From a virus (taxonomy: Duplodnaviria > Caudoviricetes), in the IMG/VR virus record IMGVR_UViG_3300025120_000074, positions 1 through 53,030 of that record: DNA of 53,030 bases; one strand, 5' to 3'. Of this stretch, positions 988 to 18,513 are shown in pieces. Every line of letters begins with the position of its first letter. Position 1 is the first letter of the stretch. The translations under genes were made by a program, and so were the position numbers. A model generated the notes under the pieces. That model saw only the letters and a list, made by a program, of their open reading frames with translations. It was not told the DNA's origin and did not search any database.

Positions 988-3135
988 TCATTTACTTGCT
1001 AAACCCTTACCTCTGGGTTTCTTTGGTTTACGTTTTGGTTTGGTTAATAATCCTCCTTTATTTAATACTCCAAAAGCATCTACTTTATCAGCACCTACAA
1101 ATTTTTCTTGTGCTTCTGAACCTGTTCCACTTGTTGCTTGATACTTATTGCCTTGCAACCCTATATTTTGTTTTGAAAGTGCTTTTAAATTATCTACAGT
1201 TTTTTGACTTTTATCTTCAGATTCTTTTGAACTACCAGAAGATACAAATTTTGGTAATGGAGATGAACTTGCTACTGCACCTGAAACTTCAGCAGCAGTG
1301 CTAGGATTTAATAAAGCTTTAAATACACTACCTATACCTTCAAACACATCTTTAATTATTGTAAGTGCTGATCCAAATAAACCAAAACCTAGTGTACTAG
1401 CAAGACCTTCTAATGCATCAGGATTATCTTTGTCATTAATAATTGCATTAATATCATCTGCAGAAACATCTTTTCCTGTAGCAGATTTTATTTCAGCAGG
1501 AATAAGTGCTACTCGTTTAGATAGAGGTAGATTATAATAGTCTGTAAAATTTAAATCTATTCCTTCTACTTTTTCTAAACGACCAAAAGAAGTTTTTAAA
1601 GCATTGTAGTTTTTATTTGTTATTAAAGCACCACCTAAATCTTCTCTTGCAATTTTTTCTGGTTCAGGTTTAGGGTCTCTATCTTTTTTAGTTTGTACTA
1701 CATTTTGTGCAGGTAGTTGTTCTATTGGAAGATAACCTTCATCAAGATACCTTTGAAAAGCAGGATTTACTACATCGTTTGTAAATGGTATTTGCATTGT
1801 TTTTCTTGTAACAGGGTCTGCAAATGTTTTGTAAGTTATTATAGCATTATTGTTTGGAAGATTTGATGCAGCAGTTTGTGCTGCTGTTGTTCCACTTACA
1901 TTACCATATCTAAAACCTTGAAGTGGATCAGTTATTAAAGCAGTAGCTGCTTTATTTTTTATACCTGTTTCAAGAGATTTAACATCTCCTGCAACATTGT
2001 AGCCACCTATGTAACCACCTTTTGCAGCACCTGTTATTTTTCTAATCATGTCTTCTTCTTCAGAGGATAACTCTTCTTCTCCTGAACTAGTAATCATTGC
2101 TACAGCTACAGGCTCACCACCTATACGTCCATTACGTTCCATATTAGCTAAACCTATCTTAGCATTAGTACGTAAATCTTCAAAAAACTTTACTCCATAA
2201 AACCTTACCACATCAGCAGGTACAACATACTCACCCTCACTAAGTTGTGCAGGTATGTCATCTCTAACCTCTTCTGCTAGAGAACCAGAAGGTACATCAT
2301 TACCACTTACAGGGTCTTTGGTTGTACCATCATCCTTAAGACCGCCTTCTTCCATAAAAGCCATATTCATTTGTTGTTTCATTGCTGTACCACCCTTATT
2401 AAATTCTTTACCTGTGTTTTTTGTAAACATATAACCCTGTTGACCTGCTAATCTATCACCCTCTAATATATTTTTATATATTTTTTCACCTTCTTTACCA
2501 CGTAATTTTATGTTTGATAAAATATCTATAGGTACATATTCATGTCCTAAATCTTTTAATGCAGCAATTCTATGAGCACCTTCATGTCCAATGTTAAGTA
2601 ATGCACTTCCTTTTTTAGGTACGTCTACATGTAAAAAAGGAGGAGCTAGTTTTTTCCCACTTTGTATTGCTGATTTTAAAGACTCTATACGGTCAATACC
2701 CATACTACTTGAGCCATCTCCTGCTGAAATTCTTCTTCTATTAGGAAATAATTTTTCAGCTTCTTCTATAGGAACAAGGACTGTTTTTACATAGCTATCC
2801 CTTCCTTCAATTCCCCTACCAAAATCCATAGGAGGAGTTTCTATTTGTGAACCTACTAAACCCATAGGATTATCTGTTTTATTTTTAGAAAATAACTTTA
2901 ATGTTTTTTGAATACCCTTACTTGCTATTTTACCAACAGGTGTTACTCCTGCTAGTGCTAAACCTGCATCTATAGCTGCTTGACTGTAGTTGCCTGTTAG
3001 TAATGACTTTCCAATATCTGCAATATCAATTAGAGTACCTGTTACAGGAGCATTACGCACTACATTTTTTATTCTTTTAAAAGTTTTTTCACTTTTAAAT
3101 GGGTTAGAACTAAATGCTTTTTCTGTTTCAGACAT
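988..3135 (-). CDS. modular virion/injected protein: pre-toxin-TG-like N-terminus, ParB/Srx-like domain, conserved DDIPAxLSEGEYV domain, basic tail
   Basis: EGAHRIAALKDLGHEYVPI (ParB-like GxHR), DDIPAQLSEGEYVVPADVV, several xKGG motifs. Confidence 0.6.
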   Translation of the reverse strand: MSETEKAFSSNPFKSEKTFKRIKNVVRNAPVTGTLIDIADIGKSLLTGNYSQAAIDAGLALAGVTPVGKIASKGIQKTLKLFSKNKTDNPMGLVGSQIETPPMDFGRGIEGRDSYVKTVLVPIEEAEKLFPNRRRISAGDGSSSMGIDRIESLKSAIQSGKKLAPPFLHVDVPKKGSALLNIGHEGAHRIAALKDLGHEYVPIDILSNIKLRGKEGEKIYKNILEGDRLAGQQGYMFTKNTGKEFNKGGTAMKQQMNMAFMEEGGLKDDGTTKDPVSGNDVPSGSLAEEVRDDIPAQLSEGEYVVPADVVRFYGVKFFEDLRTNAKIGLANMERNGRIGGEPVAVAMITSSGEEELSSEEEDMIRKITGAAKGGYIGGYNVAGDVKSLETGIKNKAATALITDPLQGFRYGNVSGTTAAQTAASNLPNNNAIITYKTFADPVTRKTMQIPFTNDVVNPAFQRYLDEGYLPIEQLPAQNVVQTKKDRDPKPEPEKIAREDLGGALITNKNYNALKTSFGRLEKVEGIDLNFTDYYNLPLSKRVALIPAEIKSATGKDVSADDINAIINDKDNPDALEGLASTLGFGLFGSALTIIKDVFEGIGSVFKALLNPSTAAEVSGAVASSSPLPKFVSSGSSKESEDKSQKTVDNLKALSKQNIGLQGNKYQATSGTGSEAQEKFVGADKVDAFGVLNKGGLLTKPKRKPKKPRGKGLASK

Positions 3136-13912: not shown

Positions 13913-14208
13913 TAAGCATTTTCCTTTTCCTTTTGCTTTCTCAACTGAAGCTTTGCTTGTTTTGCAAGTCTCACAACTTCAGTCTTACCCATAACTTTAG
14001 CACGTTGTTCCATCACTGTCAAGATTTGAATTTTCCTAGCGTAAGATTTTTTAATCCTCTTGACTTTTGCGATTGTTTCTTTAGCATCTTTTACAGTAGC
14101 AAACTTTATACTCACTGTATCTTTTGGATTCTCATCTGTGTACAGTCTTCTGCCACTACCTTTAGGTTTTTTACCAGTTCCTTTTAGAGGGTCTTTTTTC
14201 TTTGTCAC
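13912..14208 (-). CDS. small basic protein
   Basis: RRLYTDENPKDTV.IKFAT; GTG start; coupled to the next gene. Confidence 0.65.
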   Translation of the reverse strand: MTKKKDPLKGTGKKPKGSGRRLYTDENPKDTVSIKFATVKDAKETIAKVKRIKKSYARKIQILTVMEQRAKVMGKTEVVRLAKQAKLQLRKQKEKENA

Positions 14209-14210
14209 AG

Positions 14211-14336
14211 TTATTTAGCTTTTTTACTTGTTATGCCTTTTAAAACTTTGGCTTGACCTGCGTGTAACTTAGAAGCTTTATTTAAACCCTTAATAACTTT
14301 TTTAACTTTCTTTTTACTTTGATTAGTTAATGCCAT
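14211..14336 (-). CDS. 41-aa basic protein (not in ORF track)
   Basis: MALTNQSKKKVKKVIKGLNKASKLHAGQAKSLKGITSKKAK; TAATG coupling. Confidence 0.6.
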   Translation of the reverse strand: MALTNQSKKKVKKVIKGLNKASKLHAGQAKVLKGITSKKAK

Positions 14337-14737: not shown

Positions 14738-15088
14738 TTATGCAGTTGTTGTCTTAGGTACTTCAACTAAAGAAGCTATCACATGTAATCTGTTAGCTGT
14801 GGCTGCAGTCACTTTTAAAATATCTCCTGAAACTAAAATTAAATCGCTGGTTAATAATTCTACTGTACCGTTAGCTCCCACTGCCTTAACTTTAAATACA
14901 CTAAAAACAGAACTACCATTTGTGATAGTTACTGTTATAGTGTCAGCATTGCCTGTATCCTCAGACACCAGTATAGAAGATACAAAGGTTGTCATCAGGG
15001 GTGGACAGGTATAGAATGTAGTTGCAGTAGCTGTGGTTAAATCTACTTTAACATTCTTATAACGTGAGGTGCTAAGTACGTTAGCCAT
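14738..15088 (-). CDS. small beta-rich putative virion protein, paralogue-like to 46850..47215
   Basis: Shared T.Y...TT.V...V...G..EL...L..L...D.L pattern. Confidence 0.55.
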   Translation of the reverse strand: MANVLSTSRYKNVKVDLTTATATTFYTCPPLMTTFVSSILVSEDTGNADTITVTITNGSSVFSVFKVKAVGANGTVELLTSDLILVSGDILKVTAATANRLHVIASLVEVPKTTTA

Positions 15089-15283
15089 TTATTTTTTACG
15101 TGCCATACCGCCACCATAAAACATCCCTGTCTTACGCAGGTCTGTCATACCACCTTTAGCATAACCCTTTTTCTTTTTACTCATGCCACCCTTATTCATA
15201 GCCATACCAGTAGTAGGGTTGATTTTCTTTTGATCCATGGGCATCATGCCACCCATTGAGTATCCTTTTTTCTTCATTTTCAT
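15089..15283 (-). CDS. Lys/Met/Gly-rich peptide with four xxxGG motifs
   Basis: YSMGG, MNKGG, YAKGG, FYGGG; AGGAG RBS. Confidence 0.65.
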   Translation of the reverse strand: MKMKKKGYSMGGMMPMDQKKINPTTGMAMNKGGMSKKKKGYAKGGMTDLRKTGMFYGGGMARKK

Positions 15284-15293
15284 TTTGGTTCTC

Positions 15294-15593
15294 CTACCAT
15301 TTGACTTTATCTGCCCAGTATGCAGCAGACATTTTTCCCTTTTTAATATTCTTAGCGTGTCTCGCCTTGAATGATTTACGCTTTGCTTTCATTCGTGCTG
15401 ACTCTCCTGCTTTAGGACTTCCTGCAGTTTCAGCACCCTTCTCTCCAAATTTAATTAGCTTGTACTTGCCACCCTCACTTGCCATCACAACGTGAGACTT
15501 GCCACTTGGATCATCCCTAAGTCTCTTAGGTTTGTTGACACCCTCAAGTCCATACTTCTTCATCAGCGTTTTGACTCGTTCAGGTATCGCCAT
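15294..15593 (-). CDS. conserved basic phage protein
   Basis: K.H.V.A...I.FG..G...RKSFKARH...SAAYWA..KW. Confidence 0.7.
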   Translation of the reverse strand: MAIPERVKTLMKKYGLEGVNKPKRLRDDPSGKSHVVMASEGGKYKLIKFGEKGAETAGSPKAGESARMKAKRKSFKARHAKNIKKGKMSAAYWADKVKW

Positions 15594-15840
15594 AGTGTTC
15601 TCTCTTCATGTGTGGCTTGTAAACATCCCTAGCTTCTAGCATACCCTCAAGATACATAGCTCTTTCTACGTGATCCAGTGTGTACAGTACTCCAGTGTCA
15701 AGTTGAATCTTCTTTCTAACATAGAATACGTCAGAACGAGGGATGTGGCATCTTCTAAGTCTTACTTCATCTTCATCTGCTAGTGCGTGATAGAACTCTT
15801 CTATTACATTATCACTAATGTAAGTTTTAATTTTGGACAT
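15580..15840 (-). CDS. first gene of the late arm, hypothetical (start revised to ATG 15840)
   Basis: AGGAG upstream of ATG 15840; H.PRSDVFYVR motif. Confidence 0.6.
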   Translation of the reverse strand: MSKIKTYISDNVIEEFYHALADEDEVRLRRCHIPRSDVFYVRKKIQLDTGVLYTLDHVERAMYLEGMLEARDVYKPHMKREHYGDT

Positions 15841-15847
15841 GGTACTA

Positions 15848-15875
15848 GTTATACTCCTAAAGTTTCTTTTGTCAA
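15848..15875 (-). promoter_or_regulatory. sigma70-type promoter, TTGACA-N13-GAG-TATAACT class
   Basis: TTGACA-16-TATAAC; matches promoters at 8-35 and 29867-29894. Confidence 0.65.
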
Positions 15876-15920
15876 CAAGAAACGACAATAAATCTCCCCC
15901 ATCTCTAAAATATATTTTCG

Positions 15921-16010
15921 TTACATTAAGTATACCTTATGTTCTTTAAGTATATACTTATAGGTGGAGGAGATTAGGTATACTTAATGTTACATTAAGT
16001 TACTTTAAGT
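15921..16010. repeat. array of quasi-palindromic ACWTWAWGT motifs
   Basis: tacttaatgt-tacattaagt-tactttaagt in 10-bp phase (15981-16010) plus copies at 15923-15951. Confidence 0.7.
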
Positions 16011-16012
16011 AT

Positions 16013-16040
16013 ATTATACCACGATTATACATTATGTCAA
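16013..16040 (-). promoter_or_regulatory. consensus sigma70 promoter of the late arm
   Basis: TTGACA-16 nt-TATAAT with TGn extended -10. Confidence 0.75.
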
Positions 16041-16448
16041 GCATTAATTTAACTAATATGTAACAAATATAGGTTTTTCACAGTGTATTTCCCAGAGTTG
16101 TTCTTAACATTGCCCCCAGTTGTACATTATGTGGCTGAGAGGCTCTAGGTTGTTCACTGAGTGGGGTCTGGGAGTTATTACATCGTATCATACCTAACGT
16201 ATCTATTCCCTCCTCAGAGGGGATTTACAAGATGCTCTGTGTATTCTGCATAAATGCCTAAAAAATAGGCAATATAATACAACTGCACGTTTTGTATGCA
16301 GAAATACAATGTAGTTAACACTCTGTTTCCCCCTTCTCTGGCAGAGTATGTACATAGTATCTACGTAGGGTAGGGTGGCTCATGCAACCCAGTAGTAAAA
16401 ATACCACAGTGATGCAACATATTGTAGCTTTCAGGTAACACGTGCAGC

Positions 16449-16513
16449 TAAACCATTGATTTTAAACAATATCTTATACAATAATACATTCTATTACGTG
16501 TAAGTTATTGATT
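16449..16513 (-). promoter_or_regulatory. two IHF-consensus sites
   Basis: AATCAATGGTTTA (16449-16461) and AATCAATAACTTA (16501-16513) both fit WATCAANNNNTTR. Confidence 0.5.
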
Positions 16514-16715
16514 TTACTGGTAGTTTTACAGCCATTGCACGAATTTTGAAGTATTCAAGTATAATTTTTTTGTCGCATATATATAGTCATAAAAATAATT
16601 TAAAAAAAAATAAAAATAATTCTTTACATATCTATTTTTTTAAATTAGAACTGTACTCAACAAACAAAAACATTTTAATAACCGCTAAGGCAATCTTTAA
16701 AATAAGTTAGTTTGT

Positions 16716-16783
16716 TAAGACTAAACTAAAAACTTTCATTTAGTATAAAAATGTGAATTATAAGACTAAACACTAAGACTAAA
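16716..16783 (+). repeat. three TAAGACTAAA direct repeats after an A/T tract
   Basis: Exact copies at 16716, 16761 and 16774. Confidence 0.7.
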
Positions 16784-16791
16784 ATTAATAC

Positions 16792-16821
16792 TTGACTAAC
16801 AATACGAATTAAGATTACGAT
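16792..16821 (+). promoter_or_regulatory. early promoter
   Basis: TTGACT-18 nt-TACGAT with AT-rich upstream DNA. Confidence 0.55.
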
Positions 16822-16827
16822 ATAAAC

Positions 16828-17200
16828 AAGCGGTAAGAAAGCGGTAGGTTAGAAATAAAAAGATCTTGTATAGACGCTACAAGCCACTCTCTAAGTGATA
16901 TTAGAAAAGGTACACGCCATTTATTGATTTTGTGGAAACACATGGGCTAACTTTAACGCAATCCTTACGATTGTATTAGGTGTCTTAAAAGGATAATGGT
17001 AAACGTAAAGAGCTAAGGTCAATCAGTCTTTACTACCACAGTGCGAGGGATAATTAAGCCACGCTGTTGTCTATCATAGTTATGGTAACACTATGACAAG
17101 GCTAGTCCAACAGACGTTATCCTTTAGGTGAATATATAAGCCTATAAATAATGATTAGAGGGTGCAAGGCATAGTGATATGATGACAACTTGCATCCTAT
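16828..17200 (+). ncRNA. candidate large structured RNA / 5' leader
   Basis: No ORF of 60 aa or more; at least eight stems seen by eye, including a GAAA tetraloop and a 10-bp closing stem 17159-17168/17189-17198. Confidence 0.55.
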
Positions 17201-17201
17201 A

Positions 17202-17572
17202 GTTTAAATTAAGTATAACCTCTCAAACTTATGATTGGAAATATTATGAATATACTACAAAAATTTAGCGTAAAAATGATTACTAAAAGAACAAGTAGAA
17301 GTCTAAGTAAGCAAGGTCAAAAGCCTGTTTACTTTAACACCCATAAAAATATTAAGGATAGATGGGGTAGCTATATTACTTCTGGTGGTGTGAGTGATAA
17401 GGCTTTTCTTGCACTATGTATGGGTGATCAAACGTCATACTTTCCACTTGAAAGTGTGGCAAAAAAGACACCATTTAAAAACAATGCAAAGACAAGAATT
17501 AATTTTGTACAGCATAAACAATAATAACTTGACAACTATTTAAATTTAATAGAGGTTATACTTAATTTAAAC
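17202..17572. repeat. perfect 22-bp inverted repeat flanking the first early ORF
   Basis: GTTTAAATTAAGTATAACCTCT (17202-17223) / AGAGGTTATACTTAATTTAAAC (17551-17572). Confidence 0.9.
17231..17524 (+). CDS. first early protein, basic, hypothetical (start may be 17246)
   Basis: 97-aa ORF enclosed by the inverted repeat. Confidence 0.6.
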   Translation: MIGNIMNILQKFSVKMITKRTSRSLSKQGQKPVYFNTHKNIKDRWGSYITSGGVSDKAFLALCMGDQTSYFPLESVAKKTPFKNNAKTRINFVQHKQ

Positions 17573-17584
17573 AAGAGGTGTAAT

Positions 17585-17755
17585 ATGACATATACAATAT
17601 TTTTAATTATAGGTATTGATAGAAGTGTGGGTGACGTACAAGAAAGCGTATACGCTGTTTACCATGATTCAGATGATATTGGTGGTGATATACAAGACGC
17701 AATTAATGAGGGTTGGGATGATGTCCAACTTGTAACAAGAGAAGTTGAGGTGTAA
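17585..17755 (+). CDS. 56-aa acidic early protein (not in ORF track)
   Basis: GAGGTG RBS; MTYTIFLIIGIDRSVGDVQ... Confidence 0.6.
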   Translation: MTYTIFLIIGIDRSVGDVQESVYAVYHDSDDIGGDIQDAINEGWDDVQLVTREVEV

Positions 17756-17756
17756 C

Positions 17757-18353
17757 ATGACTGTAAAAAATAGAAATAATATTGAGAGGGTGTTTAACTT
17801 AAGAACACCAGAAGAAGAAAAAGATGGTGTGACATGGTATGCACTAGCACAAGCAGATGCCAGACGCATGGCAATCTATTACAGCATACCCTTAACTACT
17901 GCGGTGGGTGTCATTGCGTCACTATCACCTAACAATAAATGGGAACGCAATGTAATAAATGCTAAGGATTTAATAGAGGGATACTTGAACGGAGAACACA
18001 AGGAAAGTATCAAAGTTAGCACCTACCATGCAATGAAAGACAAGGCATGGTCTATGCTTGAGGATATGTTAGAGACTGATGAGGATATATTGACTAGGCT
18101 TAATGGGCAAAAAATCAAGAGTTTTTACGAGTGTATCATGGGATATGATGCCTGTTGTATAGATGGACATGCCTATAATATTTGGAGATATGAGAGGGTA
18201 GGATTAACCACAGATAAAACCAACATAGGCAAGAAATTATACGCAGAAATACAAGGTGATTATGTGAGGGTAGCTAAGAAATTAGATATGAAAGCCTACG
18301 AATTACAAGCAATAACTTGGGTAGCATGGAGAAGAATACATGGCATTACGTAA
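17757..18353 (+). CDS. HhH-GPD/DNA-glycosylase-like fold protein
   Basis: WY...IASLSP...W..N, G.KI.SF, IDGHA, QAITW; start revised to ATG 17757 after GAGGTG. Confidence 0.55.
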   Translation: MTVKNRNNIERVFNLRTPEEEKDGVTWYALAQADARRMAIYYSIPLTTAVGVIASLSPNNKWERNVINAKDLIEGYLNGEHKESIKVSTYHAMKDKAWSMLEDMLETDEDILTRLNGQKIKSFYECIMGYDACCIDGHAYNIWRYERVGLTTDKTNIGKKLYAEIQGDYVRVAKKLDMKAYELQAITWVAWRRIHGIT

Positions 18354-18513
18354 AGAAAGATTCTGGAGTGTAGTACTATTAGATAAGGAACGCTTAGATG
18401 GTAGCTATATCTATCTAAAAGTTAAGGCTAATACTAAGGCTGATGTACTACATACATTTCTAGATTACTATGAGATAGTAGACGTAAACTTATTTAATGT
18501 GAGGGTAATATAA
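18340..18513 (+). CDS. 57-aa hypothetical (not in ORF track)
   Basis: MALRKERFWSVVLL...; fills the gap, TAATG coupling. Confidence 0.55.
   Translation: MALRKERFWSVVLLDKERLDGSYIYLKVKANTKADVLHTFLDYYEIVDVNLFNVRVI

Follow-up and report, generated by a model that had tools for sequence, protein, structure and literature searches.

A sharply bounded, dispensable noncoding cassette of 370 nt in the control region of a marine podovirus

RNase III cuts off the early leader ('initiator') RNAs of phage T7 at its first site, upstream of gene 0.3; to our knowledge, the T7 leader is not a presence/absence cassette. The put RNA of phage HK022, which acts in cis, is some 70 nt long, contains two defined stem-loops and brings about processive antitermination on downstream terminators; put sites are not known to us as dispensable polymorphisms within a population. 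Also noncoding is the phi29 pRNA, an early-promoter transcript from the start of a podovirus genome that is essential for packaging. Small RNAs arising from 5′ untranslated regions through premature termination have been described for Pseudomonas phages 201phi2-1, phiKZ and PAK_P3; they are shorter than 250 nt, have 5′ and 3′ ends mapped by ONT-cappable-seq and include one that is structurally conserved across phages (PMC11512511). For the loss and gain of small pieces without function, the nearest described process is the PeSL-mediated shuffling of T4-type phages (PMC2839356).

The stretch of DNA analysed here, referred to as the window, is an IMG/VR virus record of 53,030 bases with a completeness rating of 95%, and is the 53-kb genome of a marine podovirus. 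New in this stretch is a discrete, dispensable noncoding cassette of 370 nt at the putative head of the early transcript. Like the T7 leader, it would provide a podovirus with an untranslated leader of several hundred nucleotides leading from host-type early promoters to the first early gene. The site at which the T7 leader is released is double-stranded RNA, for which the candidates here would be a hairpin at 17159–17198 and a duplex between 17202–17223 and 17553–17574; the T7 leader has further promoters, and the cassette bears no sequence relation to it. With put RNA, which the first-pass annotation had suggested as a model, the cassette shares a position directly downstream of an early promoter, here a candidate one, but no series of terminators, matching structure or homologue was found for it. 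Unlike the phi29 pRNA, it is absent from most copies in one marine DNA metagenome run (X3), and no Rfam family matched it, the pRNA model not being confirmed among those searched. The 5′ UTR-derived small RNAs resemble the cassette in being noncoding, in reaching from a promoter to the first ORF and in having a 3′ end just upstream of a gene; they differ from it in that the cassette has inferred ends, a length of 370 nt and a conservation known from one near-identical contig (PMC11512511).

The features around the cassette are as follows.
16792–16821, plus strand: sigma-70-like promoter candidate, TTGACT-18 nt-TACGAT, 9 of 12 positions matching
16831–17200, plus strand: ORF-free cassette of 370 nt with presence/absence polymorphism, from an X3 contig joint and stops in all frames
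16849–17149, plus strand: interior of 301 nt, absent from a possible 'mini' allele, from an X3 joint
17159–17198, plus strand: terminal hairpin AGGGTGCAAG / CTTGCATCCT of 10 pairs with a 20-nt loop, from its z-score against shuffles
17202–17223, plus strand: left arm of an inverted repeat with its partner at 17553–17574, holding one TTAAGTATA box, directly right of the cassette
17231–17524, plus strand: 97-aa ORF, the first early one, between the arms of the inverted repeat

Encoded in the record are a terminase, a portal, a family-A DNA polymerase, a primase/helicase, a thymidylate synthase and a tyrosine integrase. The nearest match of the DNA polymerase is that of roseophage CRP-6 (56% amino-acid identity), and a DUF7178 protein (17757–18353) has hundreds of relatives among marine viral contigs and others in SIO1-like, Lentibacter and RCA roseophages. 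Minus-strand genes occupy the sequence up to 15888 and plus-strand genes that from 17231 onwards; between these divergent blocks lies a single ORF-free control region of 1.34 kb, which contains the cassette. Just left of the cassette is a tract of 13–24% G+C (16550–16800); the cumulative G+C-skew minimum falls at about 16700, and the cassette is on the side from which all plus-strand genes run. Its own G+C content of 35–39% is like that of local coding DNA.

Contigs of X3 and of three RNA runs were aligned to 15500–18499. In one X3 contig, with a depth of 59.2, position 16830 is joined directly to 17201, skipping exactly 370 nt; this empty-site joint is represented by that single contig, whose shorter side has 30 letters, and 0 letters are shared at the joint. 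The joint may reflect replacement instead of clean deletion. Another X3 contig carries the cassette (16827–17179, 0 differences in 353 nt, depth 10.6), and the flanks have depths of 69–140. A weaker joint, 16848→17150, skips 301 nt at a depth of 32.6 and points to a 'mini' allele in which 18 nt from the left end of the cassette and 51 nt from its right end are retained; the shorter side of this joint has only 22 letters, and joints with a side below 30 letters often come from other organisms or repeats. The depths of the empty, mini and full forms add up to about 102, inside the range of the flanks. The segment 16831–17200 is thus a discrete, dispensable and sharply bounded cassette, and the first-pass annotation, which had delimited a unit of about 370 nt, had placed its ends within 3 nt of these boundaries. 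Being absent from most X3 copies, the cassette cannot be essential, and service as a replication origin, a packaging RNA or an obligatory antitermination element is unlikely for the same reason.

A box, TAAACAAG, precedes both the cassette (16823–16830) and the next indel (17568–17575), and the left junction, ATATAAACAAGCGGT, resembles a gene-start box, ATTTAAACAAGAGGT, at 17565. A 56-aa ORF (17585–17755) is missing from a 98%-identical contig (L003) and from one X3 contig (joint 17575→17742); its deletion (window 17576–17749) lies between repeated ribosome-site/start boxes, GAGGTGTAAYATGAC. In a check for borders of the PeSL type, the TAAACAAG box shared by indel borders and the GAGGTGTAAYATGAC repeats bounding the 56-aa ORF are what was found, and these boxes are short (8–15 nt) with only two copies each. 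As described for PeSLs, insertions, deletions and replacements among close relatives cluster in a stretch of nonessential DNA, with short conserved regulatory boxes at the borders; PeSLs are present there as many promoter and terminator copies flanking ORFs, whereas here the shuffled unit is noncoding and two boxes of 8–15 nt are involved (PMC2839356). In these phages, the control region is pieced together from small cassettes, each present or absent.

The cassette is noncoding, as had been proposed. All three kinds of stop codon occur in five of its six reading frames and two kinds in the sixth; tblastn of its two longest open stretches (37 aa on the plus strand, 42 aa on the minus strand) in phage records, with E up to 1, returned none, and no coding similarity was found by tblastx and tblastn in 162 related loci and 50,697 phage records.

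The first-pass annotation had further read the segment as a structured RNA with alternative folds and a possible pseudoknot. The complementary strings that it named are all in place: the stems CTTGTA (16865) / TACAAG (16878), TGTG (16931) / CACA (16939), CCAT (16917) / ATGG (16942), GCAATC (16958) / GATTGT (16969), TGGTA (16997) / TACCA (17034), GTAAAGA (17005) / TCTTTAC (17027), CTGTTG (17064) / CAACAG (17108), TCATAGT (17074) / ACTATGA (17090) and AGGGTGCAAG (17159) / CTTGCATCCT (17189); the alternative-fold strings GGATAAT (16991 and 17048) and GTTATCC (17116); and the pseudoknot strings ATTGATTTT (16923) and AAGGTCAAT (17015). Most of the named stems are used by the minimum-free-energy fold, in which two further features were delimited.
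16996–17038, stable on both strands: hairpin TGGTA+GTAAAGA / TCTTTAC+TACCA, from its z-scores against shuffles
17045–17125, plus strand: nested helices GAGGGATA / TTATCC..., CTGTTG / CAACAG and TCATAGT / ACTATGA, from the minimum-free-energy fold

Stems were counted with G-U pairs allowed and loops of up to 60 nt, against 200 dinucleotide shuffles. Those of at least 6 pairs number 43, compared with 36.8 ± 5.8 in the shuffles, 31 of which reach 43; with a minimum of 7 pairs (11 versus 14.2) or 8 pairs (3 versus 5.4) there are fewer stems than in the shuffles, and an arm as long as the longest one here, 10 pairs, turned up in 95 to 113 of 200 shuffles over three runs. The plus-strand fold of 16828–17200 has an energy of −88.5 kcal/mol, compared with −81.2 ± 5.3 in shuffles (z −1.38, 10 of 100 as good), that of the exact cassette, 16831–17200, has a z-score of −1.31 (19 of 200 as good), and the minus strand gives −0.71 and −1.08. 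Among the parts, the hairpin at 16996–17038 is not strand-specific, with z −2.27 on the plus strand (8 of 300) and −3.74 on the minus strand (1 of 300); the nested helices reach −1.92 (12 of 300), which is non-significant given that they were chosen; and the left hairpin at 16865–16883 is at chance level (z −0.46). The hairpins 16996–17038 and 17155–17202 were likewise selected after the fold had been viewed.

The stems of the cassette are therefore real but ordinary, as expected by chance for its length and composition, and its interior 300 nt have no demonstrable conserved architecture. Judged by fold stability against dinucleotide shuffles, the reading of the cassette as a structured functional RNA is unsupported; folding no better than such shuffles, essentially the outcome here, is what the annotation had itself named as refuting it. 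The proposed alternative folds and pseudoknot amount to complementarities of 7–9 nt that shuffles yield too, leaving the elaborate structure, the switch and the pseudoknot unsupported. A list of stems found by hand in an AT-rich stretch of 370 nt is no evidence of structure.

The annotation had recognised no tRNA, riboswitch or intron consensus, and the searches agree. Rfam 15 gave 0 matches in the whole window at gathering thresholds, so that no family matches the cassette, be it a riboswitch, an intron, a phage RNA or, where included, a large structured RNA such as GOLLD, ROOL or HEARO; with E up to 10, slices of 1.9 kb and 0.48 kb (481 nt) yielded noise only, far below the thresholds. The sub-threshold overlaps are as follows.
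17175–17260, plus strand: snR79, 16.2 bits against a threshold of 55
17196–17220, minus strand: plant-virus pseudoknot, 14.5 bits against 39
17109–17213, minus strand: NEAT1_2, 13.3 bits against 60
17154–17260, minus strand: SurA, 11.8 bits against 100

ARAGORN found 0 tRNA or tmRNA genes in the window. At a group I intron the upstream exon ends in U and the intron in G, and the core is conserved; here G precedes the cassette (16830), its last base is T (17200) and there is no Rfam intron match, and we rejected this candidate. A group II intron was rejected on its end bases, which do not fit.

Homologues were sought in 162 loci (80 from IMG/VR and 80 from metagenomes around relatives of the DUF7178 protein, and 2 for the 97-aa ORF). 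Searches of the intergenic region with blastn, nhmmer and tblastx against them returned a sole homologue, the 98%-identical contig L003 (the same contig as L163 and L165). It differs from the cassette at a single position (17135, unpaired in the fold; 99.7% identity), compared with 21 differences in 15889–16560 and 12 in 17231–17590. The cassette is nearly invariant among carriers; the low divergence from L003 also spans the AT-rich 16560–16830, and this block may reflect recent exchange as well as constraint. The next relatives (L083, L004 and L084) have protein identities of 76–70%. The upstream gene of L083 is a different one, and L004 has a different control region of 700 nt with three TGTGATCACA palindromes (2900–3000), which in this 71%-related phage look like repressor operators.

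Searches of wider scope returned no further copy. Against 50,697 phage records, blastn with 'distant' settings found only a 37-nt AT-rich match; exact probes of 20–25 nt, taken at five sites of the cassette and in either flank, found no further related copy in IMG/VR, two extra matches (L166 and L167) being rejected as unrelated perfect palindromes; and two exact probes had 0 matches in 185,579 species genomes. Five related records of 50–59 kb (four rated 100% complete, one 89%), searched with BLAST, also gave 0 matches, an empty result that is uninformative. A covariance model of 16990–17130 run over the 162 sources yielded three mutually related weak matches (21.7, 19.2 and 14.8 bits). These were rejected as homologues: all three are oriented against the early genes and consist of a hairpin with TTGACT-N17-TATAAT behind it, just upstream of the first gene. 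In L051 (407–505; also in L042 and L054), the unit is composed of the hairpin AAGGGCATT...AATGCCCTT, this promoter-like sequence and then the first early gene, and such hairpin-plus-promoter units are a trait by which the relatives resemble T4-type phages with their PeSLs.

The promoter candidate at 16792–16821 is preceded by the tract of low G+C content, and its expected start, at about 16828–16831, coincides with the first bases of the cassette, which begins 10 nt past the −10-like hexamer. Promoter-like sites are not enriched in the region (15, compared with 12.3 ± 3.6 in shuffles). In metatranscriptome X18, a single 250-nt contig (depth 2.2, 3 differences) lies wholly on 16951–17200 and runs up to the final base of the cassette, 2 nt past the terminal hairpin; the rest of 15500–18499 is represented in that run only by four AT-rich pieces of 31 letters with 4 mismatches each. 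Where this contig ends weakly suggests a transcript 3′ terminus right behind the terminal hairpin; the run was found via this very stretch, libraries of its kind can hold DNA, and contigs prove neither end nor strand. A contig of RNA library X20, the 5′ part of which is unlike the window, covers 16721–16836, upstream of the proposed start. Uncovered parts of 15500–18499 in the RNA runs are not counted as silence. The earlier placement of the segment at the head of the early transcript holds in part: the start within about 3 nt of that expected from the promoter candidate and the X18 contig on the 3′ two-thirds speak for it, and the unenriched promoter-like sites and the X20 contig against it. 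Promoter function, transcriptional direction, the position of the 3′ end and any effect on regulation are inferred.

The terminal hairpin closes 2 nt before the end of the cassette. Tested as 17155–17202, it has a z-score of −3.31 on the plus strand (1 of 300 shuffles) and −1.36 on the minus strand, and is the sole strand-specific stem better than shuffles; its strand specificity is due to its G-U pair. An X3 variant with a depth of 41.1 differs in the loop at three positions (17182, 17185 and 17186) and has a T>C change at 17195 that makes the G-U pair G-C, and a T>A change at 17198 that opens the outermost pair, which gives mild support to the hairpin being kept. Intrinsic (Rho-independent) terminators have a G+C-rich stem and a loop of 3–8 nt followed by a T run. 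With its 20-nt loop and a tail, ATAGTTTAAATT, that has no T run, the hairpin was rejected as such a terminator, and none was called here by a terminator scan; it is a candidate 3′-end, processing or stabilising hairpin.

Our preferred reading, held tentatively and at a little under an even chance, is that the cassette is an accessory noncoding 5′ leader, or a leader-derived RNA cassette, of the early operon. Its insertion point would lie precisely between the transcription start of the rightward early promoter and a conserved box upstream of the first early ORF, and the early transcript of carrier phages would open with an untranslated leader of about 370 nt terminating in the stable, plus-strand-specific hairpin at 17159–17198. 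That hairpin, the 22-bp duplex from 17202, or both would probably set the 3′ end through pausing and termination or through processing, the outcome being a discrete leader RNA of about 370 nt and a modulated expression of the downstream early genes. Support for this reading comes from the discrete 16830→17201 joint, the noncoding content, the position after a promoter-like site, the end of the X18 contig, the terminal hairpin formed on the plus strand only, the conservation among carriers, the allele depths that sum to a value within the flank range and the precedent of the 5′ UTR-derived phage small RNAs. It is weakened by a fold no better than shuffles, by the lack of an Rfam match and of a diverged homologue, by the single low-depth RNA contig and the X20 contig upstream, by a hairpin that is not a terminator, by promoter-like sites that are not enriched, by a low divergence that may be due to recent exchange and by an empty joint on one contig. 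A rival explanation, which we regard as rather unlikely, is a neutral filler with no function of its own, whether co-transcribed or not: either the remnant of a decayed gene cassette or a spacer left by illegitimate recombination in a hyperplastic regulatory region. The ordinary fold and the dispensability in most X3 copies agree with it, as do further X3 joints in the same intergenic region (15888→15999/16001, 16021/16042→16250/16251 and 17575→17742), the neighbouring 56-aa ORF that is likewise present or absent, a left junction (ATATAAACAAGCGGT) like the gene-start box ATTTAAACAAGAGGT, and a G+C content similar to local coding DNA. Yet no leftover coding similarity was detected in the 162 related loci or the 50,697 phage records, carriers diverge very little, the ends of the cassette coincide with a putative transcription start and a strand-specific hairpin, and the RNA-library contig halts at the cassette end.

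The cassette might instead act as double-stranded DNA, as a control element with operator or promoter sites or as part of a transcription-activated replication origin. Its location within the single control region, beside the tract of 13–24% G+C and the skew minimum, would fit such a role, and so would the hairpin at 16996–17038, which is at least equally stable on the minus strand, promoter-like sites on the minus strand at 17022–16993 and 17241–17212, a direct repeat of AGCGGTA (two copies with 11-nt spacing, 16829–16846) and the use, by relatives, of repeated palindromes or units of hairpin and promoter in their corresponding region. We nevertheless hold it to be decidedly unlikely, as a dispensable cassette is no essential origin or packaging site, none of the eight TTAAGTATA boxes of the genome and no array of repeated sites is inside it, and the terminal hairpin is strand-specific. 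Elements of the IS200/IS605 type insert beside a short target with no terminal inverted repeats or target duplication, and are marked by repeated occurrence with identical ends, by subterminal hairpins on either side and by a Y1 transposase of the genome or the host. A small mobile element that is non-autonomous, such as a palindrome-associated one of this type beside the short target ...AACAAG followed by AG..., would account for the clean insertion, for a joint without shared letters or visible terminal inverted repeat or duplication and for the subterminal hairpins near both ends (16865–16883 and 17159–17198); partial word shares with runs labelled freshwater and brine, which are no evidence of habitat, also accord with it. 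The chance of such an element is slight: no second copy was found in the window, in the five related genomes, in IMG/VR (six exact probes) or in 185,579 species genomes (two probes), no transposon-associated RNA of Rfam matched, a scan of 24 ORFs against PHROGs returned no transposase, only an integrase, and the left hairpin is at chance (z −0.46).

Beyond the preferred reading of an accessory early leader, the cassette could be an accessory RNA gene of 370 nt, the first transcribed on infection, that acts in trans and is a polymorphism of an abundant marine podovirus lineage, maybe as a decoy or sponge against host defence or an RNA-binding factor, with full, mini and empty alleles kept by host-dependent selection; we consider this very unlikely. 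Should the cassette be a real leader RNA that affects early expression or host defence, it would exemplify a noncoding 'moron', an accessory RNA gene that comes and goes at the very start of the early operon of a widespread, uncultured group of marine phages, and the three natural alleles would be a ready-made experiment. The sharply bounded, dispensable cassette is in itself modestly interesting.

Directly right of the cassette, the inverted repeat has a perfect core of 22 nt and extends to 28 nt at 93% complementarity (17196–17223 / 17551–17578). The 97-aa ORF that it encloses has no PHROG or Pfam match, and its relatives are only the near-identical contig and one weak 25-residue match. An X3 contig spans exactly 17201–17575, with 14 differences, none of them in the repeat arms. 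Repeat and ORF could be a terminal-inverted-repeat cassette or form a long-range RNA duplex; on the mRNA, the repeat arms would form a long duplex of the kind cut by RNase III.

Two further kinds of feature were delimited, most of them in the left half of the control region.
16013–16040, minus strand: predicted leftward promoter, a perfect TTGACA-16-TATAAT with an upstream TG, pointing to the minus-strand genes
15926, 15946, 15979 (minus), 16005, 17209, 17557 (minus), 21433 and 21510: boxes of the 9-mer TTAAGTATA

The 9-mer is present in 8 copies in the window, compared with 1.83 expected, a count reached by 0 of 100 shuffles. Its copies are confined to three noncoding spots, four by the leftward promoter, two in the inverted repeat and two upstream of the integrase gene (21619), and look like binding sites of one regulator. 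Adjoining the leftward promoter is an imperfect palindrome (49 nt, 71% complementary, 15906–16007). More skipping joints are found in X3 (15888→15999/16001, 16021/16042→16250/16251 and 15675→15920), by which the left half of the control region (15888–16251) is also a set of present/absent pieces; the joints in this half have sides of 21–44 letters, and some may derive from other phages.

A 32-nt piece at 16241–16272 is 84–88% identical in seven related loci that are otherwise unalignable (L015, L018, L030, L033, L103, L120 and L132, some being one contig twice), where it has the opposite orientation relative to the DUF7178 gene. Within it is the hairpin TGCCTA-AAAAA-TAGGCA (16255–16271), and by its sequence the piece is a conserved small palindrome. 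Further upstream, 13915–14333 is missing from L003, and the divergence from that contig, 1–3% elsewhere, rises to about 7% at 14800–15300 (83 differences in 500 nt), centred on a 116-aa ORF (14738–15088) and a Gly/Met/Lys-rich 64-aa ORF (15089–15283).
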